A stretch of DNA of 64,000 nucleotides from Planctomycetota bacterium (GCA_027493525.1 JAOSKN010000003.1:1223316-1287315); one strand, 5' to 3'. Positions 8,217 to 22,803 are shown, numbered from the stretch's first letter. The notes: generated from the letters alone by a model not told the origin. Translations and numbers: made by a program.

Positions 8217-9040
8217 TACGGTCCCTGCCCCAGTTCCCGGCTCCGCTCCGCCGCGCGCCGGATCGCCGCGGTGAGCTTCTCCTTCACCCCGTCGGCCTCC
8301 AGCCGCTCCACCGCCGCCTGCGTGGTGCCGTTGGGACTCGTCACGCGCCGGCGCAGTTCCTCCGGCGCCAGGCCCGTCTCCTCCAGCAGCTTCGCCGCGC
8401 CCAGGCACGTCCGCGTGCTCAATTGCAGCGCCTGCTGCGGCGTGAAACCCTCGCGAATCCCCGCCTCGACCATCGCCTCGACCAGGTAGAACAGGTACGC
8501 CGGGCCGCTCCCCGAAAGCCCCGTCACCGCGTCCATCATCCGCTCTTCGACGCGCAGCACGACCGCGGAACTCGAAAGCAGCGTCTCGATCGCGCGCAGG
8601 TCCGGCTCCGTCGCGTGCCGGCCCGCGCACAGGCACGCCGCGCCCAGGCCCACCAGCATCGGCGTGTTCGGCATCACCCGCACCGTCCGCGCGCCCGCCG
8701 GAAGCCCCGCCTCCAGCCGCCGCGTCGGCACCCCCGCCGCGATCGACGCCAGCAGGTGCCGCTTCACCTCGAAGAACGCGCCGATGTCCTTCAAGACCTC
8801 TTCGATCGTCTGCGGCTTCACGCACAGCACCAGCACGTCCGCCGCCTCGAGCACCTCGCGGTTGGTCCGCGCCGCGCGCACCCCGAGTTCCTTCGCGAAG
8901 AGCTCCCGCCGCGCGTCCGATACGTCGCTGGCGATCACACGGTCTTTCGGCAGCAGATTGCTCTTGATTACACCGCGCGCCAGCGCCTCGGCCATGTTGC
9001 CCGCGCCCAGCAGTCCCAACGTCCGGCTCGCCAATTCCAT
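8216..9040 (-). CDS. proC: Pyrroline-5-carboxylate reductase
   Basis: GAGNMA, CVKPQ, RVMPNTP, GLSGSGPAY and VTSPNGTT motifs. Confidence 0.97.
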   Translation of the reverse strand: MELASRTLGLLGAGNMAEALARGVIKSNLLPKDRVIASDVSDARRELFAKELGVRAARTNREVLEAADVLVLCVKPQTIEEVLKDIGAFFEVKRHLLASIAAGVPTRRLEAGLPAGARTVRVMPNTPMLVGLGAACLCAGRHATEPDLRAIETLLSSSAVVLRVEERMMDAVTGLSGSGPAYLFYLVEAMVEAGIREGFTPQQALQLSTRTCLGAAKLLEETGLAPEELRRRVTSPNGTTQAAVERLEADGVKEKLTAAIRRAAERSRELGQGP

Positions 9041-9394
9041 GAAGCGTCAACCCGTCCGTGCGCGGCACGCCAACTCGAAGGTGAACCCGTCCCGTCCGCC
9101 CCGCGTGCTCTGGCCCTCTGCGGTTGGAAGAGGTCGATGCAAATGCTAACGCACCTTGCGTAGTTGCCAACTGGGAAAAGGAACCCGCCCCGCGCTCGTC
9201 TCCATGCCTTCCTACTTATCCTTGTCTCCTGCGCCTTGATCGCTTTCCCTTCCTCCCCGAGGAGGGGCAGGGGCGGCGCCGAACCAATCCGCGCGAAGCG
9301 CGCCCCAATTCCGAATGGAGTTCAGACTAAAATTGCTCGGCGTTCTCCGCGTCTTCTGCGGTTCAAGCCGTGTGGTCGTGTGCGGAAGGCGGGA

Positions 9395-10123
9395 CTACGC
9401 AAAGAGCGCCGATCCCACCCGCACCATCGTCGCGCCTTCCTCCACCGCCGCCTCATAGTCCTGCGTCATGCCCATCGATAACTCGAGCAGCGGCGCCGGC
9501 GCCCAGCCTTGCGCGTTGGCCTCCTCCAGCAGCGCCCGCAGCCGCGCGAAGACCGGGCGCGCAACCCGCTCCGCGTCGTCCCCGTGCGGCGCCATCGCCA
9601 TCAAGCCCGCCACGCGGCACGGCGCGCACGCCGCCGCCTCGCCCAGAAACCCGCGCAGTTCGCCCGGCGCCAGCCCGTGCTTCTGCGCCTCGCCGCTCAC
9701 GTTCACCTCCGCCAGGCAGGGGACCTCCGCCAGCCCGCGCTTGCGCGCCTCCCGCGCGATCTCGCGGAGCAGCCGGCTCGAATCCACCGCGCCCAGCCAG
9801 GCGTAGTCGCGCAATGCGTATTTGACTTTGTTCGTCTGGAGGTGCCCGATGAAGTGCCAGCGCGCCCCGGCCGCGGCAACCTCGCCGCGCAGCGCCTCGA
9901 GCTTCTCCCGCGCGTCCTGGATCCGGTTCTCCCCCAAGTCGCGCACGCCCCCGGCCAAGAGCGCCCGGACCTCCGCCGCGCCGACGTACTTCGTCACCGC
10001 GATCAGCCGCACCCCCGCCGCGTCGCGCCCGGCCCGCGCCGCCGCCGCGCCGATCCGCGCCCGCACCTCCGCCAGGTTCCGCGCGATCCGCTCGGGTTCG
10101 ATCGAAGGAAGCCGCTCCGCCAT
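9395..10123 (-). CDS. yggS: PLP homeostasis protein YggS
   Basis: LIAVTK, GENRIQ, WHFIGHLQTNK, LSMGMTQDY and VRVGSALF motifs. Confidence 0.96.
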   Translation of the reverse strand: MAERLPSIEPERIARNLAEVRARIGAAAARAGRDAAGVRLIAVTKYVGAAEVRALLAGGVRDLGENRIQDAREKLEALRGEVAAAGARWHFIGHLQTNKVKYALRDYAWLGAVDSSRLLREIAREARKRGLAEVPCLAEVNVSGEAQKHGLAPGELRGFLGEAAACAPCRVAGLMAMAPHGDDAERVARPVFARLRALLEEANAQGWAPAPLLELSMGMTQDYEAAVEEGATMVRVGSALFA

Positions 10124-10174
10124 GCTGGGAAGGTAATCGCTCGTCCGTACACGGCAAACGGTGGATTCGGAATC

Positions 10175-10495
10175 GTACCGCGAGCGTCCCGCCCGCTCCA
10201 CGTGCCACGGGTCAGCGAAGCCGCCCCGTGCCTTTCGTAGCGCCGGCGTCCTCGCCGGCTCGCGCGGGCGTCCCGCCCGCCGTGCCACGGGTCGGCGAAG
10301 CCGCCCCGTGCCTTTCGTAGCGCCGGCGTCCTCGCCGGCTCGCGCGGGCGTCCCGCCCGCGCGTCTTTTCGTTCCCCCATACCGCGAGCGTCCCGCCCGC
10401 CGTGCCACGGGTCAGCGAAGCTGCCCCGTGCCCCCGTAGCCCCGGCGTCCTCGCCGGCCTTCTTCCGTACCGCTCCCCGCCGTGCCACGGGTCGG
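10175..10495. repeat. REP cluster
   Basis: Four CGTGCCACGGGTC-type hairpins interleaved with GTAGCGCCGGCGTCCTCGCCGGC units. Confidence 0.9.
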
Positions 10496-10497
10496 TT

Positions 10498-10555
10498 GCG
10501 TCGTAGCCGAAGTAGAGCGTCGTACGCGTAGTAGAGGGGCATCGTACCCATAGTC
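10498..10555. repeat. Array of three degenerate 17-bp units (consensus GCRTCGTAGNCGTAGTA)
   Basis: Units at 10498-10514, 10517-10533 and 10539-10555; same family as 15337-15421. Confidence 0.85.
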
Positions 10556-10589
10556 TGGACTGGCGCGCCGGACTTGGTATGCTGCCGTC
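10556..10589 (+). promoter_or_regulatory. Putative leaderless promoter of RHS cassette 1
   Basis: TGGACT-16 nt-TATGCT-6 nt-ATG; identical geometry at 15422-15455. Confidence 0.55.
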
Positions 10590-11807
10590 ATGGTGGCGCG
10601 AGCCGAACCCCTGCGCAGGCGTGAACTTGAGTCCGCTGAGTGGCTCCCTTGGCGTCGTAAGCGAAGCGCTGAAATCCACCACTCAAGCACAATCTATCAG
10701 GCCAACTGGTTGACCTTTACCATCGGCGGGCGCAGGTTCTTCCTGTCGCGGTATCGTATCCAATGCCCCGAGTTGGGCATCTTCCTGAGCCGAGACTTCC
10801 TGCCGTACCCAAACAAGTACAGGGCGTGGTCGAATAATCCCGTGGGGCAGGTGGATAGGGACGGATTGGCTTCAACTGATACACTTACAGGATATCACCT
10901 TGACATATCGTTGTCTGGATTGCGGCCAGAAGTCAGAATCGAAATTGCCAAGAGATGGCTAGATTCTGCCGAACAATGGATCAATTTTTATAAGGACGAC
11001 CTAGAACAAGCAACCAAATTTGGCATAACTAACTTGACAAGCCATCAAGAATCACTTCATCAAGCAGAATTAGAGTACGCCAGAAGAAGGCAGAAATTCC
11101 GAGAAATCTTAAGGGATGCTCTCAATGACTTTGCCCAAAGCGAGGATAAGCGTGTACGCGACGAATACGAAAGAATAAGATGCAAGAAGGTTTGTGAGTG
11201 CATGGAGGACGCTCTCTTGCTATTCTTTGAGGCTAATAGGGCAAGGCGTAACGACCCTGAATGGAACAATGTTCTCCAAGAATTCTTGACTGCCGGAGGG
11301 GATAAAATTCGCAATGACTTTATTGTGGCAGTTGCGCTGACAGTGGTTTCAGCAGGGGTACTTGCATTTGCAAAAGCACCAGTTGTTCTAGAATCGACCA
11401 TTGCCGTCGGGAGTACGGTTACGAGAACTGCCTTATTGGGCCACAAAGCTGCGCTTGCGGCTGAGGCGTTAGAGATTGGCCTGGGAGGCCTTAAAATCTA
11501 CAATATGCAGGATCTAACTCGTACCATTTCGTCGGTTGAAGATTTGGGGACATTGGATACAGGAGTTATAAACAAACTTAATGGAATAAAGCCAGGCCTC
11601 GGTGATAGATATAATGCCTATTGGCGTAAGTCAATCCATGGAGGTGTTTTCAATCTTAAGCAATTGCGGGAGCGTCTACGGGATTGCGACAATAGTCCAA
11701 GTCGATTACTTGGCGACGATAGACGGAGCGAAATTATACGCAATCTCACGGAGGCCGAACAGTCCGAGTTGAGAGATTTGCGGAAGGAGTACGGATGCGA
11801 TAGGTAG
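10590..11807 (+). CDS. Short RHS-core tail + C-terminal toxin domain (helical, with a hydrophobic segment)
   Basis: RIQCPELGIFLSRDFL...YRAWSNNPVGQVDRDGL matches the RHS core end (PxxxxDPxG-like). GC drops abruptly after it. Confidence 0.8.
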   Translation: MVARAEPLRRRELESAEWLPWRRKRSAEIHHSSTIYQANWLTFTIGGRRFFLSRYRIQCPELGIFLSRDFLPYPNKYRAWSNNPVGQVDRDGLASTDTLTGYHLDISLSGLRPEVRIEIAKRWLDSAEQWINFYKDDLEQATKFGITNLTSHQESLHQAELEYARRRQKFREILRDALNDFAQSEDKRVRDEYERIRCKKVCECMEDALLLFFEANRARRNDPEWNNVLQEFLTAGGDKIRNDFIVAVALTVVSAGVLAFAKAPVVLESTIAVGSTVTRTALLGHKAALAAEALEIGLGGLKIYNMQDLTRTISSVEDLGTLDTGVINKLNGIKPGLGDRYNAYWRKSIHGGVFNLKQLRERLRDCDNSPSRLLGDDRRSEIIRNLTEAEQSELRDLRKEYGCDR

Positions 11808-11826
11808 GCTAATGAGAAATTGATAC

Positions 11827-12288
11827 ATGCCCGAGCTTGGGAAGGTGCTTTTTCTTGTGGTGGTAACAGGAGCAATTGTTCTGATTGCTTATGGATTATA
11901 TGAGGGATCGAATCTTATAATTGCATTGGGTCTCGTTTACCTGTTCAGGTCCATCTATCGTTTGGGCACAAGAAGAGACTTAAGTAAAGAGCATGATACT
12001 TCTCGGGTCAAGAGCATTTCGCCTAAGTTTCATCTTTCAACTCTACTTGCGTGTGTTTGTGCATCTGCATTTTTCCTTGGAGTTGGGGTTTGGTATTGGA
12101 AGAAGATTACCTTTCAGGAAAACGTGGCTGATATTTTAGTGGTAATAATCCCAGGGGTATCGATAGTCATATTATTGGGGGTTTACCTTGAAAAACGTGT
12201 GACGGCCCTGCATCGCCCCAGCGACCCGCCTGTAGGGGATGTAGCGGCCCAGGCGACTGTAAAGGATGAAAAGGAGTCGAAAGCGTGA
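11827..12288 (+). CDS. Putative membrane immunity protein (about 4 TM)
   Basis: AT-rich, directly downstream of the RHS-CT; internal FHLSTLL motif. Confidence 0.7.
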   Translation: MPELGKVLFLVVVTGAIVLIAYGLYEGSNLIIALGLVYLFRSIYRLGTRRDLSKEHDTSRVKSISPKFHLSTLLACVCASAFFLGVGVWYWKKITFQENVADILVVIIPGVSIVILLGVYLEKRVTALHRPSDPPVGDVAAQATVKDEKESKA

Positions 12289-12348
12289 AGATGTGGAACG
12301 GACGAAACAACTGCGGCCGCACTTCTCACGCACGGATACGGCGAAGGG
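12241..12348. repeat. Conserved ~110-bp cassette 3' block, copy 1
   Basis: Near-identical to 18373-18481. Confidence 0.9.
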
Positions 12349-12953
12349 CGTATGTGTCAAAAATGTTCGTGAGGCGTAAACAGTCGTCGTCGCAGGAGGT
12401 TGAACGAGATTGCCCCAAGGACCCCGCCCCATGACCCCGCCGCCCATCGAGACGGTCTCGGTCGAGCGGCAGGACGGGCGGTGCGTCGTGGTCGTCAGGC
12501 GCGGCGGGATCGAGGCCACGGGCGCGGACCAGGACGAGCAGACGGCGCTCTTCGCGGCCCCTGGGTTCCGGCGCTCATCCTGCGCGGGCCGCTTCGAGCG
12601 CGTCCTGGACCTGGGGGGCTGTTCCGGGCGGGTGGCCGGGAGGAAGGGCGCCAAACAGCAAGCGACCGTTCACTTGCTCCTTGCCGATGCGCGTTCGATG
12701 GAGCTGGAATCTTCCGCAAGCACGGAGGCTTTCGAGACCGGGAACTCCTGCGCGCGAACGATTGGATGGAAGCGTGAGCGCGAGCGGACGCCTCCCAGCA
12801 CGGAGCAAGTCAACCGCCCTTGCTCCGTCGCACCCGCTCCTGGCCACCCGCAGTTCGTCTCTTGCTGTATTCCGTTTGCAGTTTGCCGTTTGTTTGGAAT
12901 TTGATTCTTGCCGTTTGCAGTTTTCCGTACGCAGCTTGAATCTATTAAACTCG

Positions 12954-13799
12954 TTACTCTTTCGCCTCCGGCGCCAGCACCTTCGCGCCCTCCTTGATCC
13001 GGTGGTTGAACGGCGGCCGCGCCAGGATCTTCTCGAGCGCCTGCCGCACCAGCGGCTCGGCCTCCGCGCGCCACGCCGCCTCCAGCGCCGCCTGGTGCTC
13101 CTTCCGCGCGACCTTGTCCAGCGCGTCGGCCGCCATCCGCCGCACCAGCGGGACCGCGGCGCTGCGCAAGCACCCCAGCAGCGCCGGCGCGGCGGCCGGC
13201 GTTCCCGTCTCGCCCAGCGCGCCGAGGTACGGCAGCAGCGCCCCGGCGTCGGCCGCCTGCAGCGGCGCGCGGAGCTTCTTCTGCTCGTTCTGCAAGCCCA
13301 GCGCGATCCGTTCGGCCGCCCTGACCCGCTGCTCCTCCGGCAGCCCCGCGGCCAGTTGCGCCAGCGTCACCGCCGCCTTCCGCCGCACGCTCGGCTCCTC
13401 CGAATCCAGCAGCCCGAAGACCGCCTCGTACGCCCCGCCCGCCTTCGCCAGCCCCGCCGCGTGCAGCGCCGCCAACTGCGCGCCCGGATCGGCCTCCCGC
13501 TTCAGCAGCTCCGGCAGCCGCTCGGCCGCAAGCTTCGGGTCCAGCGCCGCCAGCAGCTCGACCGCCTCTTTGCGTACCTTCGGATCCGCGTGCCCCAGCA
13601 GCCGCGCCACCCCCGCCGCCGTCCCCGCCTCGTCCGGGATTTTCGGCGCGGGCGCGGGCGCCGGCGCCGGATCGAGCGGCCGCTCCGGCGCCCCCGAACC
13701 CGCCCCGCCCGCCGCCCCGCCCCGCAGCCACAGCAGCGCGAAGGCCAGCGCCAGTATGAAGCCGAACCCCGCCGCCGCCTTCCAGATGTTCGCGTCCAT
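12954..13799 (-). CDS. Membrane-anchored HEAT-repeat protein
   Basis: N-terminal TM, Pro-rich linker, and repeats such as DPKVRKEAVELL, EPSVRRKAAVTL, PLVRRMAADAL. Confidence 0.85.
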   Translation of the reverse strand: MDANIWKAAAGFGFILALAFALLWLRGGAAGGAGSGAPERPLDPAPAPAPAPKIPDEAGTAAGVARLLGHADPKVRKEAVELLAALDPKLAAERLPELLKREADPGAQLAALHAAGLAKAGGAYEAVFGLLDSEEPSVRRKAAVTLAQLAAGLPEEQRVRAAERIALGLQNEQKKLRAPLQAADAGALLPYLGALGETGTPAAAPALLGCLRSAAVPLVRRMAADALDKVARKEHQAALEAAWRAEAEPLVRQALEKILARPPFNHRIKEGAKVLAPEAKE

Positions 13800-14155
13800 C
13801 CGTGCCCCCTTGCACCTTCGTTCGCAGTATGCCACGCGCCCCGAGCCTGTCGAATGCCTCAGCGCCCAACCCCGCGTGCCACGAGTCGGTACTCCGCCCC
13901 GTGCCCCGATTCCACGTCATGCCACGGGTCGGTACTCCGCCCCGTGCCCCGATTCCACGTCGTGCCACGGGTCGGCGCAGCCGCCCCCTGCCCCGCCTTT
14001 CCAGCCGTTTGCCGTTTGTTTGGAATTTGGTTCTTGCCGTTTGAAATTTGTTTGGCTCTTGGTTCTTCTAATTTGGTTCTTCCCGCCTCCCTGGTTCTCG
14101 CCGCCGCCCCGCGCCCCCGATTCGCAATTTGCCCTGTACGTCCCCCGGCCACCGG

Positions 14156-14191
14156 TGTATGTACTACAATACTGGTAGTATGCTACATACA
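14156..14191. promoter_or_regulatory. Candidate operator: inverted repeat TGTATGTA-N20-TACATACA
   Basis: AT-rich inverted repeat upstream of ATG 14217. Confidence 0.45.
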
Positions 14192-14216
14192 GGACTTCAT
14201 AAGGAACTAACATACC

Positions 14217-15152
14217 ATGCCTTACAAGATCACATTCATCGCGTGCGGCCTCGCCGCCGCCCCCCTCTTCGCCGGCCAAGCTGCCTCTTCTATGCCGGCC
14301 CTCAAGCCGTTTCCCGAACAAGGCGTCTACGAGCGCGACGGGAAGCGCTACGAATGCGGCCTCTATCCCGGCGGCAAGAACGAGATGCCCGAGGCCCATC
14401 GCAAGGCCGGCGAACGCCTCGCCGCGCAGATCGTCCCGCTCAGCCCGGCGGGCCAGCCTGACCCCAACGGCAGGATCGCGCTCCTCGCCGCCGGCCATTC
14501 CAACCCGCGCGAATACTTCGGCGCCTACGCGCCGTTCATCGCCGCCGAAGTCCAGAAGGGCGCGCTCCATCCCAAGGTCGCGCTCGCCTCGATCTGCAAG
14601 GGCGGGAAAATGTGCCAGGATTGGGCCAAGGAATGCCGCGCCCAGACGCCCGCCGGCGGGCCGAAGGAGACGCAGGTGCTCTTCCTGCTCACCTCCTATC
14701 ACAACGCCTCCCGCGGCGCGACCGAGAAGAAGCAGCCCGAGGCGCTCAAAATGAACTTCGAGGCGCGCACGCAGGCGATGAAGGAGGATCTCAAGGTCAT
14801 CGTCCAGGCCTTCGCCAAGACCTATCCCCAGCTCAAACTCGCCTACCTGGGGTGCGACACCTGGCGCGGAAACTCCGGCCTCGAACCGATGGTCTGGGAA
14901 GAAGCGTTCGCCTTCAAAGCGCTCATCGAAGAGCAGCTCAAAGGCGATCCCGAACTGGCCTTCGAAGGCCCCAACCGCAAAGCGCCCTGGCTGGCCTGGG
15001 GCGGCTACATCTGGGAGCACAATCCGCCCAAGGATCGCTTCGCCGCCGACGGCGTCCATCCCAGCGGCTCCGGCAAAGCCTTCGCCTACGGCCGCTGGCA
15101 CGAGCTCCTGACCAAGGACAGCACCGCCGCGCCGTGGTTCCTCAAACGCTGA
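14217..15152 (+). CDS. Secreted SGNH/GDSL-like hydrolase
   Basis: Signal peptide, block I-like AAGHSN, C-terminal DGVHP. Confidence 0.65.
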   Translation: MPYKITFIACGLAAAPLFAGQAASSMPALKPFPEQGVYERDGKRYECGLYPGGKNEMPEAHRKAGERLAAQIVPLSPAGQPDPNGRIALLAAGHSNPREYFGAYAPFIAAEVQKGALHPKVALASICKGGKMCQDWAKECRAQTPAGGPKETQVLFLLTSYHNASRGATEKKQPEALKMNFEARTQAMKEDLKVIVQAFAKTYPQLKLAYLGCDTWRGNSGLEPMVWEEAFAFKALIEEQLKGDPELAFEGPNRKAPWLAWGGYIWEHNPPKDRFAADGVHPSGSGKAFAYGRWHELLTKDSTAAPWFLKR

Positions 15153-15336
15153 ACCCCGCGCCCCGCCGTGCCGCGGGTCGGTACTCCGCCCCGTGCCCCC
15201 GCACCGCCTCGTCCCATGTCGTGCCACGGGTCAGCGAAGCTGCCCCGTGCCAGCGCAGCCGCCCCGAGCCTTTCGTAGCGCCGGCGTCCCGCCGGCCATA
15301 CCGCCCCGTCCCGGCGGCAAGTGCCATCTCGCCCTG

Positions 15337-15421
15337 GCCTCGTAGCCGTAGTCGCGTCGTATGCGTAGTAGCGCCGTAGACGTAGTGGCATCGTAGGCGT
15401 AGTAGCGTCGTAGCCAAAGTA
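15337..15421. repeat. Array of five contiguous degenerate 17-bp units
   Basis: GCCTCGTAGCCGTAGTC|GCGTCGTATGCGTAGTA|GCGCCGTAGACGTAGTG|GCATCGTAGGCGTAGTA|GCGTCGTAGCCAAAGTA. Confidence 0.92.
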
Positions 15422-15455
15422 TGGCATACGGCCGGTAACAGGGTATGCTGCGCGC

Positions 15456-16456
15456 ATGGTGGCCGTGGCCCAACCCGAGCGGGCGTGGAGCGTTACCCGC
15501 GCCGAGCGGCGCCCAGCAAGCGCCCCCGTCCCGTCCGCGCCCAGTCCGGCGCATGGGCCGGCGAGCTCATCTACCAGGCCAACTGGTTGACCTTTACCAT
15601 AGGGGCCAAGCGGTTGTGTTTGAGTCCTACTCGTGTTTATGACCCGGAGACAGGGAGGTTCCCAAGTAGAGATCCGCTCGATACTTATATACTTCTTAGT
15701 GGCCACAGCCCAAATGATTCATCCGCTATATTTGAGGGTGGCATTCCTGGAGCAATGCTATTAGCCCGAAGGACTCAATTATTGCAAAAATATGTTTTCG
15801 TAGATAATTCACCAGTTCTCTTAGTTGACCCGGTGGGATTGTACTGCTGTGTAACTGATTTTACCATAATTGATACAGGGTATATCAAGTATCCGCCTGC
15901 TCAGCCTGGACAAACGTACCCTTATCCCCTTCGTAATTGGGCAGGAGGAAGTATTAATTTTGTTGGAATTGTTGCGGCCGGAAAAAATAAGGGAAAGCTT
16001 TACTATGAATCTACCGTGCTGTTTAAGGTCTTAGTCAAACTGAGCGATGGATCAGATCCCGAAGACTGTTCATTTGTGCGTGAATGGAAAAACGAAATTA
16101 TTGCGGAAAACAACATTGTCAAGAAGGATCCATATGGCATTGAGATTCCACTAAAGGCTATAGTTGTGGGAAAGACAATTGAAATTTATGATAACCCTGG
16201 AATTATTTTTGTGGGGAGGCGTGCCGTTGGCTTGGAGCTAACTAGTGATTGGCGTTTAACCGTAAAGGATAAAACTGGGCGAATACCGGAATCCTGGATT
16301 GATTATAGATTGGCGATATATAATACAATTCTTGCAAAAAGTTCTGGAATTGAGGAAAAGGGAAAGAAGACAAGTGAACCCTGCCCATTATCCATTAAAG
16401 AAGCCTTTGGATGTGACGTAAACCGAATCGTTAATGTTCCAGAATACGGGAAATGA
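15456..16456 (+). CDS. Short RHS-core tail + C-terminal toxin domain (cassette 2); leader ATG 15456 is out of frame with the core ORF 15485..16456
   Basis: IYQANWLTFTIG shared with cassette 1; RVYDPETGRFPSRDPL...YVFVDNSPVLLVDPVGL; AT-rich CT. Confidence 0.8.
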
Positions 16457-16871
16457 GCGATGAAGCTTCAATATCGCCTGAGTACGCTAATTGGAATTGT
16501 CATTACTGCGGGGGTGGCGATTGGAATTACGGTCTATATTTATCCGTATTATTTGGCTAAGAAATCAATAGATAGGTATTGCGCTATGCCTTTGGATACA
16601 TTAGTCACTGGCTATGTATTGCGCAATAGTCAATCTAGAAGGGAGCCCATGGGATCTAAGTTTAGAGACGAAGTTGGAGCCATAAATAAATATTCGCTAT
16701 GGTCTTTAGAGTGTGCCCTGCAAAGTAAATCTCCTCAGGTTAGACGAAATGCTGCATACATTATTGCATGGGCGGGCTCCGTTGATCCTGAGACTCTTCA
16801 ATTCTTGAACGCCAGGATACAAAGTGAGAATGATAGCTTGGCTCGAGGTTTGATGGTTTGGGCATATATGC

Positions 16872-18253
16872 GGGGTATTGTCAAAAGTTGTGGATGGCGA
16901 GAGGAGAATCATGCGGCGTTTTCCTTGATGCCGTCCACGAAACGGATGCCTCGAATCACGTCTTCCAGCAGCTTATGGCCGTTTAGTTTCCGCCAGCGCT
17001 TCTCGGCAACCTGAGCGAGTTTGAACACCATCGCCAGCGTGGCTTGGCGCGTGCCGCAGCCTTTGGTCTTGTGCGTCCGCAAGCGCACCGTGGCGAAGGC
17101 GGACTCGATCGGGTTCGTCGTTCTCAGATGCGCCCAATGCTCGGCGGGGAAATCGTAAAACGCCAACAGCGCGTCTTGGTCCTTGAGCAGACACTCGACC
17201 GCCTTGGGATGCTTGGCTTGGTACGTCGCCACGAACGCATCGAACGCTGCCTGCGCATCCTTGCGCGTCTGGGCCATCCAGATCTGATGCAATTTCTCCT
17301 TGGCTGAAGGCTGTAATTTCTTGGGCAGGCCGTTCAGCACATTCATCGTCTTGTGAACCCAGCAACGCTGCACCCGGCACTTGGCAAAGGCTTTCGGAAG
17401 CGCCGCCCAGAAGCCCAACGCACCGTCGCCGATGGCCAGGTCCGGGCCGTTCTTCAAGCCGCGCGCTTTCAGGTCCGTCAAGACCTCAAGCCAGGACTGT
17501 TCGCTCTCCCGCACGCCGTCATGCACGGCGACCAGTTCCTTCTTGCCGTCGGCCGTGGCCCCCATGACCACCAGGATGCACGAGCGGTCTTCCTCCAGGC
17601 GGACGTTGAAGTAGATGCCGTCCACCCACAGATACACGTAGCGCTTGCCCGCCAAGGACCGCCGGTTCCAGCTCGCGTACTCGGAGGCCCAGACGTCCTT
17701 GATCCGCGTGATCGTATTGGCCGAAAGCCCCTTGGCTTGCGGCCCCAACAGCGCGCTCAGCGCCTCCGGAAAGTCCTGCGTGGAGATGCCCTTCAAATAG
17801 AGCCACGGGATCAGGTCTTCCATGCTCTTGGTCCGGCGCAAATAGGGCGGCAGAATCTTGCTCGTAAAGGGCTCTCGCTCGTCCGAGGGGCGCCGGTCTT
17901 CCACGCGCGGCTGCGCTACGCGTACGGCGCCGATGCCCGTCTGGATCGTTCGTTCCGGCAGGTAGCCGTTGCGCACCACCACGCGATGCCCGCGCTCGTC
18001 CCGCGCCCGCTCGAAACGCTGGAGGTATTCTTCCACCTCCGCGTTCAGCGCCGCGGCTAGCAAGCGCTGCGCGCCTTCGTTCAGGATGTGAGTAAGCCCG
18101 TCCCGGCTGGCAGCTTGCGGATCGAGCGAAACCGTCGTACCCTGGCTCATGTGGCGTATCCTCCTGCCCTTGTGGGCGTGGTGGCCTTAGATCTCCACCA
18201 AGGATACGCCGCACTTTTCTTTCTCGCTCATCCACAACTTTTGACAATACCCC
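16872..18253 (-). mobile_element. IS256-family element, copy 1 (1382 bp)
   Basis: 25-bp TIR GGGGTATTGTCAAAAGTTGTGGATG; 9-bp TSD CATATATGC. Confidence 0.97.
16909..18150 (-). CDS. IS256-family (mutator-type) transposase
   Basis: RNGY, YLWVDGIY, DGALGFW, QRCWVHK and RTTNPIES motifs. Confidence 0.97.
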   Translation of the reverse strand: MSQGTTVSLDPQAASRDGLTHILNEGAQRLLAAALNAEVEEYLQRFERARDERGHRVVVRNGYLPERTIQTGIGAVRVAQPRVEDRRPSDEREPFTSKILPPYLRRTKSMEDLIPWLYLKGISTQDFPEALSALLGPQAKGLSANTITRIKDVWASEYASWNRRSLAGKRYVYLWVDGIYFNVRLEEDRSCILVVMGATADGKKELVAVHDGVRESEQSWLEVLTDLKARGLKNGPDLAIGDGALGFWAALPKAFAKCRVQRCWVHKTMNVLNGLPKKLQPSAKEKLHQIWMAQTRKDAQAAFDAFVATYQAKHPKAVECLLKDQDALLAFYDFPAEHWAHLRTTNPIESAFATVRLRTHKTKGCGTRQATLAMVFKLAQVAEKRWRKLNGHKLLEDVIRGIRFVDGIKENAA

Positions 18254-18372
18254 CATATATGCGTAACTCTAGTAGCGATGCTGGAGCGACTCCCTATATT
18301 GACATAGAAGGAAATTGGCACGTGGAAGAGCTACCGAATTTTTAACGACAGTAATTTGTTGCTGTAGCGCGT

Positions 18373-18481
18373 GTAGCGGCCAAGGCGACTGTAGAGGATG
18401 AATAGGAGTCGAAAGCGTGAAAGATGTGGAACGGACGAAACAACTGCGGCCGCACTTCTCACGCACGGATACGGCGAAGGG
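18373..18481. repeat. Conserved ~110-bp cassette 3' block, copy 2
   Basis: Near-identical to 12241-12348. Confidence 0.9.
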
Positions 18482-18930
18482 TTTTCGAATTGCCAAAGAG
18501 CCACGACTTGCGAAAAGATCACGGGCGGGTGGCACGGGCGCCGAGAAGACACACGATGAAGGCAAGACTCCTTGATTGTGGTGCCACTGCGCTGCGGTAC
18601 TCCGCAGCCAGTGCGAGGCGCGCACCCCGGATTCAACTCGCACGTAGACCCGAATGAAGTAACTTGAGTGGGCCACGCGACCCGGGTCGCGTGGCGCTGG
18701 CTGCCAACGGTCGCAGCCAGTTGCGCCAGTTCCTGAAAGGCACAAGGCGAGGCGAAGAGTGACAGTGCTACCAGCCAGGGGATTTTTTATTGATGCACAA
18801 GGAAAAGCAATACTCAATTGGCCAAGTGCTAGTTGCGGCGGCTCCCAGCAGTTCAAGGACGCCACAGAAAGATGGAATAAACTGGAGGATCAAGATGCAA
18901 TTCTTACATACTAGCATGGCTCTTACAATG

Positions 18931-20312
18931 GGGGTATTGTCAAAAGTTGTGGATGGCGAGAGGAGAATCATGCGGCGTTTTCCTTGATGCCGTCCACGAA
19001 ACGGATGCCTCGAATCACGTCTTCCAGCAGCTTATGGCCGTTTAGTTTCCGCCAGCGCTTCTCGGCAACCTGAGCGAGTTTGAACACCATCGCCAGCGTG
19101 GCTTGGCGCGTGCCGCAGCCTTTGGTCTTGTGCGTCCGCAAGCGCACCGTGGCGAAGGCGGACTCGATCGGGTTCGTCGTTCTCAGATGCGCCCAATGCT
19201 CGGCGGGGAAATCGTAAAACGCCAACAGCGCGTCTTGGTCCTTGAGCAGACACTCGACCGCCTTGGGATGCTTGGCTTGGTACGTCGCCACGAACGCATC
19301 GAACGCTGCCTGCGCATCCTTGCGCGTCTGGGCCATCCAGATCTGATGCAATTTCTCCTTGGCTGAAGGCTGTAATTTCTTGGGCAGGCCGTTCAGCACA
19401 TTCATCGTCTTGTGAACCCAGCAACGCTGCACCCGGCACTTGGCAAAGGCTTTCGGAAGCGCCGCCCAGAAGCCCAACGCACCGTCGCCGATGGCCAGGT
19501 CCGGGCCGTTCTTCAAGCCGCGCGCTTTCAGGTCCGTCAAGACCTCAAGCCAGGACTGTTCGCTCTCCCGCACGCCGTCATGCACGGCGACCAGTTCCTT
19601 CTTGCCGTCGGCCGTGGCCCCCATGACCACCAGGATGCACGAGCGGTCTTCCTCCAGGCGGACGTTGAAGTAGATGCCGTCCACCCACAGATACACGTAG
19701 CGCTTGCCCGCCAAGGACCGCCGGTTCCAGCTCGCGTACTCGGAGGCCCAGACGTCCTTGATCCGCGTGATCGTATTGGCCGAAAGCCCCTTGGCTTGCG
19801 GCCCCAACAGCGCGCTCAGCGCCTCCGGAAAGTCCTGCGTGGAGATGCCCTTCAAATAGAGCCACGGGATCAGGTCTTCCATGCTCTTGGTCCGGCGCAA
19901 ATAGGGCGGCAGAATCTTGCTCGTAAAGGGCTCTCGCTCGTCCGAGGGGCGCCGGTCTTCCACGCGCGGCTGCGCTACGCGTACGGCGCCGATGCCCGTC
20001 TGGATCGTTCGTTCCGGCAGGTAGCCGTTGCGCACCACCACGCGATGCCCGCGCTCGTCCCGCGCCCGCTCGAAACGCTGGAGGTATTCTTCCACCTCCG
20101 CGTTCAGCGCCGCGGCTAGCAAGCGCTGCGCGCCTTCGTTCAGGATGTGAGTAAGCACGTCCCGGCTGGACGCTTGCGGATCGAGCGAAACCGTCGTACC
20201 CTGGCTCATGTGGCGTATCCTCCTGCCCTTGTGGGCGTGGTGGCCTTAGATCTCCACCAAGGATACGCCGCACTTTTCTTTCTCGCTCATCCACAACTTT
20301 TGACAATACCCC
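18931..20312 (-). mobile_element. IS256-family element, copy 2 (1382 bp)
   Basis: Same TIRs as copy 1; 9-bp TSD CTTACAATG. Confidence 0.97.
18968..20209 (-). CDS. IS256-family transposase
   Basis: Identical to copy 1 except two N-terminal residues (AASRDG vs ASSRDV). Confidence 0.97.
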   Translation of the reverse strand: MSQGTTVSLDPQASSRDVLTHILNEGAQRLLAAALNAEVEEYLQRFERARDERGHRVVVRNGYLPERTIQTGIGAVRVAQPRVEDRRPSDEREPFTSKILPPYLRRTKSMEDLIPWLYLKGISTQDFPEALSALLGPQAKGLSANTITRIKDVWASEYASWNRRSLAGKRYVYLWVDGIYFNVRLEEDRSCILVVMGATADGKKELVAVHDGVRESEQSWLEVLTDLKARGLKNGPDLAIGDGALGFWAALPKAFAKCRVQRCWVHKTMNVLNGLPKKLQPSAKEKLHQIWMAQTRKDAQAAFDAFVATYQAKHPKAVECLLKDQDALLAFYDFPAEHWAHLRTTNPIESAFATVRLRTHKTKGCGTRQATLAMVFKLAQVAEKRWRKLNGHKLLEDVIRGIRFVDGIKENAA

Positions 20313-20735
20313 CTTACAATGCTGATTGGCATGAGTTTGTTCAGCGCTAGCGTCCTTAGGGCGGAAGATGATAAACCTGTACCCAATAAACTTTCTGACA
20401 AGGAGTTAGTGGCTAAAATCAGGGAAGCGGTAGAAAAGAAAATTGATCCTGAAAAGGTCCAGGAATTTGTGGGAACTAAGCCAACGCTCAGCACTGTTGG
20501 TGACGAAAATACACTAAGATTTAGTCTAGTGACTATTGACTATGAAAATAGGGAGTCGGTTCCAAAATGGGACAAGAGGAAGAATGTCATATATTGGGTA
20601 AGGCCTATAGAATCTAAAAGGACCAAGGTTATTGGCATTTTTTATTTAAAAGACGGTGGTATGCAGATATTTGAAGGTGAAGTAGCCACTCCCGAATGAG
20701 GCAAGTGCATATGAAGCGACCCGGCTGGTGGCACT

Positions 20736-22190
20736 CAATACTGTTCGGCACGATTGTTGCGTGTGAGTCGTTCTCGAAACATTTTTAGCGCGCTTATTTT
20801 TCATTCATTTTTCCAGCCGATGCTTAGCGCATGGAACACCCGGAGCGCTATCAAGGACTCAAGTTCTTCAAGCCCTTGAGCCGGCTCTTGGGCGAACTGC
20901 GCGAACGGCACGCGAATCCCAACCGCACCCTGCATTACGACGAATACCTCATCCTGCTCCTGCTGGCCTACTACAACCCCGTCCTGCAATCCTTGCGCGG
21001 ACTGCGCAAGGCCGCCGGCCTGCCCTGGACCGAGCGCAACCTGGGCCTGCACCGCACCTCGCTGGGCAGTCTTTCCGAGGCCTCGCACGTCTTCGATCCC
21101 GACGGGCTCCGGCGGATCTTCCTGGAACTGGCCGGTCAAGCCCAAGCGCTCGACGCCCCGCCGCGCCCCCAAGGGCTGCCCGAAGACCTGCGCCTGCTGG
21201 CCGCCGACGCCTCGCTCTGGAAACTCCTGCCGCGCATGGCGCGCGCGTTGTACGTCGGACCGCTCACCCGCGCCCGCAAAGGCGCCCTGAAAGGACACTT
21301 CGTCTTCGACGTGTTGCGCGGAGTCCCCGTCGACGCGGCCTTCACCGAAGGCGCGACCGACGAACGGCACGTCCTGCCTAAGCAGCTGCTCGCCGGCGCC
21401 TTTTACCTGCTCGACCGCGGCTACTTCTCCTTCTCCGTGCTCCAAGCCTTTCGCGCCGCGCAAGCCTCGTTCCTCATGCGCCTGCGCGAGGGCCCGTGCG
21501 TGTCGGTCGTGGAGACGCGGGCGCGCTCCGAGGCCGCGCGCGGCGCCGGCGTCGTCAGCGACGAAATCGTGGACTTGGGCAAGGACCCGGCTCGGCGCCA
21601 GCGCGTGCGCGTGGTCCGCGCGCGGCATCGCGCTCCGGCCCCGCGCAACCTGCACCCGCAGCGCAAGCGCGGCAAGCACGCGGCCTACGCGCACGAACCG
21701 CTCGACCAGGAATGGGTGCTCGTGACCGACCGCTTCGACCTGGACGCGGAGTTGCTGGTGGCGCTCTACGCCTACCGCTGGCAGATCGAGACGTTTTTCC
21801 GCTGGTTCAAGAACACCTTGAAGTGCCGGCATCTGCTGGCCGAGTCGGAGAACGGCCTGGCGCTGCAGTTCTACGCCGCGCCGATCGCCACGCTGCTGGC
21901 GGTCGTCCATACCGGGCGCAAACCCACCAAGGGCCTGCTGACGACGCTGCACCTGTACCTGATGGGCTGGGCCGAGTGGCGCGACGTCGAGGAGGAACTC
22001 CAGCGCTGTAAAAGCGCCCGGCCTTGAATGCGCAGCCGTCGTGTCGCCCCACGACCGGCCGCGCCCCGTCATGCCCCAACGCAAACCCGCCGCGCCTCCA
22101 GCCGCCCAAGTCCGAAGCCCTGCCGGCACACACAGGACCGTCTTCTCGCCGAGCCTTCTCACCACGCAAGGCTTGAGCCGAACAGTGTTG
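20736..22190 (+). mobile_element. IS4-family element (1455 bp)
   Basis: TIR CAA(T/C)ACTGTTCGGC; 9-bp TSD GGTGGCACT (20727-20735 and 22191-22199). Confidence 0.92.
20831..22027 (+). CDS. IS4-family DDE transposase
   Basis: AADAS, LDRGY and YAYRWQIETFFRWFK (YREK signature). Confidence 0.93.
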   Translation: MEHPERYQGLKFFKPLSRLLGELRERHANPNRTLHYDEYLILLLLAYYNPVLQSLRGLRKAAGLPWTERNLGLHRTSLGSLSEASHVFDPDGLRRIFLELAGQAQALDAPPRPQGLPEDLRLLAADASLWKLLPRMARALYVGPLTRARKGALKGHFVFDVLRGVPVDAAFTEGATDERHVLPKQLLAGAFYLLDRGYFSFSVLQAFRAAQASFLMRLREGPCVSVVETRARSEAARGAGVVSDEIVDLGKDPARRQRVRVVRARHRAPAPRNLHPQRKRGKHAAYAHEPLDQEWVLVTDRFDLDAELLVALYAYRWQIETFFRWFKNTLKCRHLLAESENGLALQFYAAPIATLLAVVHTGRKPTKGLLTTLHLYLMGWAEWRDVEEELQRCKSARP

Positions 22191-22220: not shown

Positions 22221-22483
22221 TGGTGCCACTGCGCTGCGGTACTCCGCAGCCAGTGCGAGGCGCGCACCCCAGGTTCAACTCGGACGGGTGGCACGGGTGG
22301 CGGCCGATGATGGCCTTTACTGGAGTGTGCCACTGGCGGCTTGTCCGCCAGTGCGACGGCCGGCAAGTTAGAGATTGCGATGAAGAGTTGCGCAACATAT
22401 TCTTTGGGCGTGAGAAGGATTGGAATGGATTTCGGCTCGTGCGTTCCATCCAAGAGCACTGGCGGACAAGCCGCCAGTGGCAC
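22221..22483. repeat. REP hairpins, including an inverted REP pair (REPIN-like) at ~22325-22483
   Basis: GTGCCACTGCGCTGCGGTACTCCGCAGCCAGTGC (also at ~18580); GTGCCACTGGCGGCTTGTCCGCCAGTGC and its reverse complement. Confidence 0.85.
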
Positions 22484-22527
22484 ACTTCGGAACCACCCGC
22501 CGTTTAGGCCCTTACCTAGGAGTATTC

Positions 22528-22803
22528 ATGGATCGTAAAGGCTTAAGGCGATGGGCATATTTTCTCTTCCTATTCTTGGAATCTATTAATATCATCCTAG
22601 TGCTGGTCATCCCAAATTACAAAATTAACGATCAGGGCGTATTCTTGGCCCTTTCAATCCTTTCTTCAGGGCTTAGTGCAAAGTTGTTTTATATTCTAGC
22701 CAAAGATTTCCTCATTAGTCGCATTCGCGCCTTGATGATTGCCTTGGCCTTTAACTGTATATTTTTTGGCCTATTTTATTCATACCATTTCCGTTTCAGG
22801 TAA
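22528..22803 (+). CDS. Small AT-rich 3-TM membrane protein (orphan immunity-like)
   Basis: RBS AGGAG; hydrophobic; low GC. Confidence 0.6.
   Translation: MDRKGLRRWAYFLFLFLESINIILVLVIPNYKINDQGVFLALSILSSGLSAKLFYILAKDFLISRIRALMIALAFNCIFFGLFYSYHFRFR

Follow-up and report, generated by a model that had tools for sequence, protein, structure and literature searches.

RHS toxins carry a cargo that is sealed in a cage of YD repeats and fired by a secretion machine, and orphan tips of these proteins are seen as spare parts. In this work we describe two short RHS-related units, A and B, found in a stretch of 64,000 nucleotides (nt), hereafter the window, from a Planctomycetota bacterium (GCA_027493525.1, JAOSKN010000003.1:1223316-1287315). 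The genome holding it (G000) has 7.46 Mb in 6 contigs, 67% GC, and is 88% complete; genome comparison places it in the same family as a metagenome-assembled genome labelled Planctomycetota. The window corresponds to C3:1223316-1287315, and coordinates without a contig prefix are counted from its first letter. In both units a partial RHS core is followed by a polymorphic C-terminal part and an adjacent immunity candidate gene. It is probable that Planctomycetota have a conserved family of free-standing operons for RHS-tip toxins and their immunity proteins, of which A and B represent two tip subtypes, and that these operons are expressed autonomously inside the producer and have payloads that are swapped.

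The closest known case is that of the toxin–antitoxin (TA)-like Rhs modules of Salmonella Typhimurium. In the relevant part of that report, the main and orphan Rhs-CT/RhsI pairs have a promoter in the core tip, 89 nt before the sequence coding for PxxxxDPxGL, a toxic effect is seen with the longer product, which takes in tip sequence, and the pairs act as type II TA modules (PMC7043789). With the Salmonella P2 type described there the planctomycete units would share an RHS core end joined to a C-terminal toxin part (CT), a promoter just upstream of or inside the tip, an immunity gene downstream and an expression free of cage and secretion. However, in Salmonella the promoter lies inside a full-length or a trailing orphan rhs gene and the start is CTG (PMC7043789), whereas the planctomycete units stand alone and far from any RHS gene, with a conserved ATG (opening MVA), a leaderless geometry, a fixed 3' module and several copies per genome, and no parts of a type VI secretion system were found in G000. 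By analogy, they look like the Salmonella arrangement made permanent.

The units also resemble the orphan rhs-CT/rhsI and cdiA-CT/cdiI modules in having a core fragment, a polymorphic CT, a cognate immunity gene, low GC and a diversity due to recombination; as presented in the parts of the reports concerned, a classical orphan sits behind a parent whose core is homologous, and is deployed only after recombination (PMC3150448, PMC3967940). In contrast, no parent of the subfamily was found here in G000 or in G007, which belongs to the same family but to another genus, and the units have a conserved start codon and a promoter-like element. The standalone toxin cassettes of Zhang et al. 2012 are likewise exchangeable pairs, with HEAT-repeat and membrane immunity proteins and with Planctomycetes among the carriers; they are substrates for a constant 5' gene body, and the portion of that paper dealing with them does not describe a short fixed 5' body (~100 aa) that has a start of its own together with a fixed 3' module (PMC3482391). 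No description of free-standing, start-bearing RHS-tip operons in Planctomycetota was found in open-access full text. Integron cassettes with attC consist of variable promoter-proximal open reading frames (ORFs) with a structured 3' element, are dispersed or arrayed, and are low in GC. The likeness of A and B to them, variable ORFs bounded by a structured 3' element, is one of description only, as opposed to which no integrase lies beside A or B, the flanks are coding and an Rfam scan of 9000-22000 returned nothing at E <=1.

A tip-plus-toxin unit with a conserved start, a fixed 3' module, several copies and selection on the plug, in a genome where no cage of its subfamily was found, raises the question of a cage-independent function of the tip, be it self-cleavage, control of toxicity or docking. 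It would also extend the Salmonella finding of TA activity at Rhs ends to a distant phylum, in a form that is fixed as an independent operon.

Anatomy of units A and B

The two units lie at 10.1-18.5 kb in the same orientation, at a distance of 4.9 kb, and their order is common: a cluster of repetitive extragenic palindromic (REP) sequences, units of a 17-nt motif, TGG(AC/CA)T-16-TATGCT-6-ATGGTGGC, a 35-nt block, the RHS core tail, a low-GC C-terminal part, a small gene with hydrophobic segments and a ~110-nt 3' block. Every element that the initial annotation had listed was found in its place at both loci, as were the high-GC host genes said to separate them, namely one for a HEAT-repeat protein (12954-13835, minus strand) and an unnamed gene (14217-15152).

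Unit A, on the plus strand, is preceded by a cluster of four REP copies (10181..10496; repeat families D1-D5, strand not assigned) and by 17-nt motif units (10495..10550). The promoter-like stretch (10556..10589) comprises TGGACT (10556-10561), 16 nt, TATGCT (10578-10583) and 6 nt before the ATG of toxA (10590..11807), an ORF with an RHS tail match encoding the putative mini-RHS toxin A of 405 aa. Its leader opens MVARAEP... (10590-10691), the tip (IYQANWLT...QVDRDGL) occupies 10692-10868, and the C-terminal part, with a hydrophobic segment at residues 243-261, occupies 10869-11804. The 35-nt block, with core CAGGCCAACTGGTTGACC, lies at 10692..10726 (repeat pair D16). The immunity candidate immA (11827..12288, 153 aa) has 3-4 hydrophobic segments (four windows over the threshold, two of them overlapping), and the 3' block (12247..12350) supplies the 13 final codons (VAAQATVKDEKESKA) and the stop of this gene.

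Unit B, also on the plus strand, has its REP cluster at 15156..15298 (repeat families D1-D4, strand not assigned), a 17-nt periodic array of 5-6 units (15334..15425; families D6/D7) and a promoter-like stretch (15422..15455) formed by TGGCAT (15422-15427), 16 nt, TATGCT (15444-15449) and 6 nt before the ATG. The putative mini-RHS toxin B (toxB, 15456..16456, ~333 aa) carries the block at 15569..15603 (D16; 94% identical to that of A), a tip with a ~40-aa insert that ends in VDPVGL and was recognised by its RHS tail match (15569-15841), and a C-terminal part at 15842-16453. As the window reads, the ATG at 15456 and the block are in different frames, and the frame of the ATG ends at a TGA inside the block, the longest in-frame ORF starting at GTG 15485 (15485-16456). 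However, contigs of all three covering DNA runs (X5, X1 and X8) have an extra C behind 15522, in the C-run 15520-15522, which puts the ATG in frame with the tip; toxB then opens MVAVAQP..., to be compared with MVARAEP... in toxA. The frameshift in the window is most likely an assembly (homopolymer) error or a strain variant. Thus, the proposed ATG is in frame as it stands in A, and in B with the extra C.

The immunity candidate immB begins at 16460, and the product of its 5' part (16460..16871) shows a single hydrophobic segment at the N-terminus and resembles HEAT_2 weakly, at 24.3 bits against a cut-off of 27.7. The gene is split by a 1,382-bp IS256-family insertion sequence (IS; 16872..18253, minus strand) recognised by a transposase match and 25-nt inverted ends, with 9-bp direct repeats CATATATGC at both ends (read by eye); the rest of immB (18254..18345) starts at the second 9-bp copy and its stop is at 18343-18345. 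The claim of a membrane protein behind each CT is thus borne out by hydrophobic segments in both products, with the reservation that immB is interrupted. G000 has 12 copies of this IS at 99-100% identity, which indicates that it was recently active; of these, a second lies in the window at 18930-20311 and another inside a copy of the repeat pB in the cassette array at C1:1650 kb. The 3' block of B (18362..18481) closes the unit.

Public protein records are shorter than the ORFs described here, with 321 aa for toxA (P0015, starting at ORF residue 85) and 278 aa for toxB (P0001). Since the public gene calls begin inside or after the tip, and omit all or most of it, the family is hidden in current records.

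Recurrence, start, tip and 3' end across the family

The block occurs five times in G007, followed in each case by an A-type tail (KYRIYDPELGIFLSRDFLPY.NKYRAWSNNPVGQVD..GL), a different low-GC CT and a small ORF, and the shared 3' block is found 1.0-1.5 kb downstream of each of the five 5' blocks. Three of the copies stop ~55 nt from contig ends, their upstream part being a 671-bp collapsed repeat contig, C38, with TAGAAT-6-ATGGTCGCG and the leader MVAMSPAHGG...; in the other two (L020 and L021) the start arrangement is in place on their own contigs. Metagenome proteins have the N-terminus MVA[LVR]A[EQK] in common, and four further clusters of the protein library, which was clustered at 50% identity, open MVA[LV]A[EQK] (P0002, P0020, P0022 and P0047). 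A strict pattern scan of genome contigs returned the G007 loci only. In metagenomes the scan gave 8 loci; a short upstream frame is combined with a readable start context in L053 alone, where 68 aa precede the tip, and L056 and L060 also have <100 aa before the match. The tip was detected in 11 of 401 sampled genomes of the phylum and, outside G000 and G007, open frames of 329-466 aa (8 matches) outnumber those of 914-1,903 aa (3 matches); several of the short frames are ordinary ends truncated at 5' to varying lengths, or stop where the contig does.

With the same syntax in five G007 units and one metagenome contig, the view that these are stereotyped units with their own start, and not trailing orphans, is sustained, and beyond G000 they are more than two copies left by an old local duplication. 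The idea of a dispersed system fits the 3' block, present at 14-16 places in G000, but not the 5' module, for which G000 has only these two neighbouring copies; the 35-nt block was found nowhere else in it at <=5 mismatches.

In each of A, B, C38, L020 and L021 (five out of five when aligned on the ATG), exactly 6 nt separate a TAnnnT hexamer from the start codon, and L053 adds TACAAT-6-ATG, making six of the six loci with readable DNA; at one fixed place TAnnnT is expected in ~0.5% of starts (A and T each ~0.165). This spacing corresponds to the geometry of a leaderless transcript, and transcription would be expected to start on the A of the ATG. The stretches in A and B agree with the promoter consensus at 8 of 12 positions by manual count. 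An internal promoter like Salmonella P2, with TTGACC in the tip as -35, was also considered and rejected, as no TAnnnT is conserved 17-19 nt downstream of it in A, B and the G007 units.

Contigs assembled from one metatranscriptome (X6) match the units at >=99% identity, in toxA (11637-11789), immA (11858-12130), toxB (15829-16121, 16129-16281 and 16273-16480) and immB (16695-16852). All six placed contigs fall within the cassettes. None lies on 9300-11576 or 12336-15624, which include the high-GC neighbours and both 5' ends, a lack of cover that proves nothing.

The C-terminal plug (~95 aa) of Photorhabdus Rhs1 is, in the part of that study concerned with it, an aspartyl protease in which the Asp of the second motif is catalytic, and the two-Asp-motif/DPxGL definition used here is taken from the same source (PMC8636562). 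A HMMER search with toxin A matched 53 library proteins, and in nearly all of them the match was confined to residues 33-100 of the query. Six are full-length proteins of 1,935-2,351 aa with YD_repeat_2x (87-168 bits) and RHS_repeat, two also with Laminin_G_3, and the tip lies ~330-500 residues before their C-terminus. Residues 33-98 of toxA, for instance, are 74% identical to positions 1878-1943 of P0018 (2,271 aa). From the occurrence of the tip in full-length YD-repeat proteins it follows that a subfamily of planctomycete RHS proteins normally ends its core in IYQANWLT...DxxGL. Two of the six full-length relatives exceed the curated cut-off of TIGR03696 (32.5 bits), which among the relatives is passed by P0008 (36.5), P0042 (35.7) and P0046 (52.1). 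About half of the 53 matches are proteins of 300-460 aa in which the tip begins within the first ~110 residues. In A and B only 34-38 residues precede it, the window has no TIGR01643 match, and the YD-repeat cage is not part of the same polypeptide.

For the 61-codon tip, comparing A and the five G007 tips, dN/dS was 0.04-0.22 in the 13 pairs, of 15, for which it was computable, with pS of 0.38-0.80. As these units already have the mini architecture, the low ratios show that the plug fragment is under purifying selection at the protein level and has been kept while cage-less. Asp37, Asp57, Gly60 and Leu61 are invariant in all six A-type tips; the motifs are SRDF...VDRDGL in A, where Pro is absent, and SRDP...VDPVGL in B. 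Within the tip, the 18-nt anchor CAG GCC AAC TGG TTG ACC uses a single codon per position in A and four of the five G007 units, B having the same codons as A; the exceptions are L019 (CGG for TGG) and G012 (TCC for GCC). Residues with at least four codons are single-codon at 3/3 anchor positions as against 1/17 in the rest of the tip (hypergeometric p ~0.004), a pattern from which some nucleotide-level constraint on the anchor follows. Our guess is that it could serve as a recombination handle.

The leaders are Arg-rich, poorly conserved and unequal in length, and all are in frame. Read in another frame, the leader DNA of G007 gives YD-like repeats, so that the leader looks like recycled repeat DNA.

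Beyond the tip, the payloads diverge. The initial annotation had described unrelated AT-rich CTs, and indeed the C-terminal parts of A and B show no relationship (BLASTP, E=10) and have 45-49% GC against 67% for the genome; immA and immB are likewise unrelated save for hydrophobic stretches. ToxA and P0002 are alike from Met1 to DR[DN]GL and unrelated after it, and the insert-bearing tip of toxB (~40 aa between the Asp motifs) recurs in P0047, where the likeness stops at DP.GL. A word-based homologue search with B returned only its own record. Matches in the ESM Atlas were set aside as leads only, the best of them (0.80-0.84) being under the 0.9 bar.

The 3' blocks of the two units are 90-100% identical in the repeat search (12230-12348 and 18362-18481), so that a shared block of ~110 bp at both loci stands as proposed. 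In G000 it has 16 BLAST places and 14 matches to its 37-nt anchor, and a low-GC ORF reaches it or stops just short of it at 14 of the 16. The upstream ORF runs in-frame into the block in 5 of 14 copies, immA included, ending in ...TVKDEKE(S/P)(K/E)A or a close variant, and in G007 the block gives the tail ...KDRDEKDEEKPQP...PPPAPK to three of five upstream ORFs. Right after the stop there is an imperfect hairpin of ~20 bp (A 12276-12342, B 18408-18475), followed in most copies, B among them, by a T-run. Pairing in the alignment extends to 93% of the hairpin cells, which 1 of 500 shuffles attained, with 4 compensatory pairs, figures that kinship alone can give. A simple terminator scan listed fewer terminators than shuffled sequence gives. 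Small ORFs within the block were rejected as coding, since the frame is lost between copies by a 1-nt indel. We read the 3' block as a shared gene end plus a possible terminator or stabiliser, which may also provide 3' homology for cassette exchange.

The same 3' block closes a second type of socket in G000, present in two paralogous 11-kb segments (C2:1888380-1899330 and C2:1912678-1922114). It has TAGAAT-6-ATG or TATACT-6-GTG, a signal peptide, an RHS remnant (..GDPVNRWDPMG), a variable toxin and an immunity gene. Each comes with two PF00589 tyrosine recombinases, 0.1-3 kb upstream, and these segments may be a mobile element with toxin cargo.

Proposed readings: autonomous operon, relic or delivered weapon

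In the reading that we favour, that of an autonomous operon family, a unit starts with a -10-like TAnnnT placed 6 nt before the start codon, and the transcript, beginning at the ATG, would be a leaderless mRNA. Its ORF opens MVA... with an Arg-rich, little conserved leader of 35-65 aa, continues with the last ~60 residues of the RHS C-terminal plug (the aspartyl-protease region), including both Asp motifs, and ends in a putative polymorphic toxin; a small, often membrane-bound, candidate immunity protein follows, and then a fixed 3' module made of the last codons and stop of the immunity gene and the conserved hairpin. The family would descend from YD-repeat RHS toxins of ~2,000-2,350 aa through loss of the cage. 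The toxin would be produced and kept harmless by its immunity partner within the same cell, comparable to the Salmonella Rhs-CT/RhsI pairs that resemble type II TA modules; payloads would probably be swapped through homologous recombination, with the tip sequence on the 5' side and the 3' block as its two ends; and the tip may be a self-cleaving or folding pro-domain. Direct support exists for the anatomy, the recurrence in a second genus and in metagenomes, the homology of the tip, selection, the frames open from the ATG, the RNA-library contigs and the unrelated payloads.

Several observations weigh against this reading. A simple promoter scan, which needs 9 of 12 positions, lists neither promoter-like stretch, and their match to the -35 is weak; the promoter assigned to each unit can be read directly in the sequence but stays below the threshold of the scan. 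The RNA contigs come from one metatranscriptome assembly, carry neither strand nor ends, and may include DNA carry-over. Both tails match TIGR03696, as had been expected, but at 20.7 bits for A and 26.8 bits for B, under the cut-off, and through the last half of the model only (positions 33-76 and 33-53); in A the first YDP is lost (RIQCP) and the cleavage motif is DRDGL instead of DPxGL. AlphaFold2 (AF2) does not support a cage-independent fold of the tip, as residues 1-105 of toxA (10-row alignment) were modelled with a mean predicted local distance difference test (pLDDT) score of 58.4 and no globular fold, with only a beta-hairpin meander at residues 41-67 and low confidence elsewhere; the model of the toxB tip and C-terminal part made without an alignment (pLDDT 31.6) was unusable. 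The toxin and immunity roles of the products are predictions. Pfam, NCBIfam and PADLOC gave no family for either C-terminal part, nor for immA, and the library HMMER search found no homologue of the C-terminal part of A past its helical first third. Recombinational swapping is deduced only from the mosaic structure, no exchange event having been caught. Finally, the IS in immB beside an apparently intact toxB is hard to square with a toxin B active in the cytoplasm, unless the truncated ImmB still protects or the insertion is recent or present in a subpopulation.

A further-reaching form of the autonomous-operon reading, which is possible but should be taken as tentative, regards the socket of ~100 aa (leaderless start, disordered leader and tip) together with the 3' hairpin module as a cage-independent platform for swapped toxin–immunity pairs. 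The invariant 18-nt anchor and the hairpin would then be recombination handles, the tip a self-cleaving pro-domain or a beta-strand dock, and the whole a new class of polymorphic toxin system.

Alternatively, and rather improbably in our judgement, the units could be orphan rhs-CT/immunity cassettes of the ordinary, silent kind, or the decaying remains of an RHS locus that was lost, with upstream frames that are fortuitous in GC-rich DNA and immunity genes as the only parts that matter. No parent gene is at hand in the genome: YD repeats occur in G000 only at C3:128-136 kb and C2:1935-1944 kb, with other core ends (NPFFYTGQ... and GYRGQLHD...), and a full-length parent of this subfamily was not found in G000 (88% complete) or G007. 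A query of shell plus tip (P0012) retrieved in G000 just unit A and a 137-residue match, and in G007 the five minis only. No full-length rhs gene whose core end is homologous precedes the units, and the block has no other copy in G000 within that completeness. In the window no other TIGR03696 or YD-repeat match was found, in agreement with the absence of a full-length RHS gene claimed for it; for the equally claimed absence of PAAR and VgrG, PAAR gave no match in the whole of G000 (88% complete), and VgrG was not searched. The absence of a parent, true for G000, does not extend to the subfamily, whose full-length members of 1,935-2,351 aa exist elsewhere. Tip scores below the threshold, the lost YDP of A, the frameshift of B in the window, the IS in immB, the many 5'-truncated RHS ends of varying length in the phylum scan and the public gene calls that start after or inside the tip (P0015, P0001) would all suit a relic. 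On the other hand, dN/dS is low with synonymous sites near saturation among units that are already mini, and the ATG context is kept in two genera and one metagenome contig, with MVA N-termini in four more clusters. Moreover, the frame of B is restored in three of three DNA runs, and the RNA-library contigs cover toxin parts as well as immunity genes.

The only shell remnant of the subfamily in G000 is a 224-aa open frame at C1:813507-813920, 50% identical over 137 residues to the IYQANWLT-type shell, which lies 1.7 kb from a tyrosine recombinase (C1:815587-816045).

We give a similarly small chance to the units being delivered weapons, the tip docking in trans to a cage or other export device, or the protein leaving the cell by another route. 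Such a role would agree with the protein-level constraint on the tip, with its prediction as an exposed beta-hairpin meander and not a domain, and with the hydrophobic helix of toxA and the membrane protein encoded by immA; in addition, the minis of G000 that have a signal peptide and a shorter RHS tail use the same 3' block and the same TAnnnT-6-start. However, neither a signal peptide nor a known trafficking domain is present in A and B, the search of G000 gave no cage that lacks a tip of its own, and PAAR and TssC gave no match in it, a genome that is 88% complete.

Mobility and the surrounding repeats

Least probable of all is that A and B are site-specifically mobilised cassettes, as those of integrons, with the 18-21-nt anchor and the 3' hairpin as recombination sites: the anchor is indeed invariant at synonymous sites, the dispersed 3' block has a conserved hairpin and often REP sequences nearby, and the related sockets on contig C2 sit beside paired tyrosine recombinases, but both "sites" are inside coding sequence, the 5' junction in G007 falls after DxxGL and not at the anchor, the 5' module has only two adjacent copies in G000, no target duplication surrounds the units, no identical cassette is present at two sites, and none of the 22 PF00589 matches of G000 lies in C3:1223316-1287315. 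The initial suggestion that the units are mobilised thus found no backing. An empty site could not be defined because synteny with the same-genus genomes G002 and G001 ends right after yggS; three genes up to yggS are syntenic (67-90% aa identity) and nothing after it in these genomes matches the window. Contig joints that might have been taken for excisions were rejected, those at 9653>13345, 10399>13961, 10281>15219 and 13905>10201 because their sides are 21-32 nt in REP or GC-rich repeats, and that at 12288>12433 because it comes from a paralogous copy of the 3' block.

The repeat search found REP copies in the window at 10181-10496, 13864-13992 and 15156-15298. The REP core TGCCACGGGTC has 119 copies in 87 clusters in G000, and it lies <=4 kb from 8 of 15 copies of the 3' block, as against an estimated ~9% by chance (87 clusters, 7.46 Mb). 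Targeting and co-residence in plastic intergenic DNA fit this association equally well; the statement that the cassettes land at REP clusters goes beyond the data, as such proximity denotes association with plastic DNA and is not evidence of targeting.

With respect to the 17-nt array, proposed for both loci, a clear periodic array is present in B, where the only place in the 7.46 Mb of G000 with at least five CGTAG at spacings <=25 nt is found, but A has one unit detected by the repeat tool (10495-10514) and two degenerate ones seen by eye. A coding role as YD repeats was rejected, since the period of 17 is not a multiple of 3. The reverse complement of the motif, TACTACGSCTACGACGC, is present in the leaders of G007. 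It occurs four times in the sense strand of the C38 leader (L026), downstream of the ATG; in G000 the same motif forms the array on the opposite strand, upstream of the promoter-like element (10495-10550 and 15334-15425).

Downstream of unit A, 12349-12925 is a mosaic of multi-copy repeats: pA1, with 15 BLAST matches at 81-100%, seven of which, outside the window, are full-length at 92-94%; pA2, with ~17 matches at 72-91%; and pA3, with ~39. In seven of the eight pA1 copies examined there is a small conserved ORF (MTPPPIETVSVERKDGRFVVVVRRGGIEATG...) whose ATG overlaps the stop of the preceding small frame, and Pfam and PADLOC gave no match to it. Behind unit B the repeat pB (18579-18778), of ~200 nt, GC-rich and hairpin-rich, has 26 BLAST matches, often just upstream of low-GC cassettes, and forms arrays at C1:1647-1652 kb, C2:118-119 kb and C2:845-847 kb; one of the copies borders directly on what remains of a tyrosine recombinase, a C-terminal fragment at C3:507502-507669. 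Further on, among 20319-20699, 20831-22027 and 22420-22803, there are two low-GC small ORFs, one of them with several hydrophobic segments, and between them a DDE_Tnp_1 transposase, with a partial pB repeat at ~22221-22286. The plastic island reaches ~23 kb.

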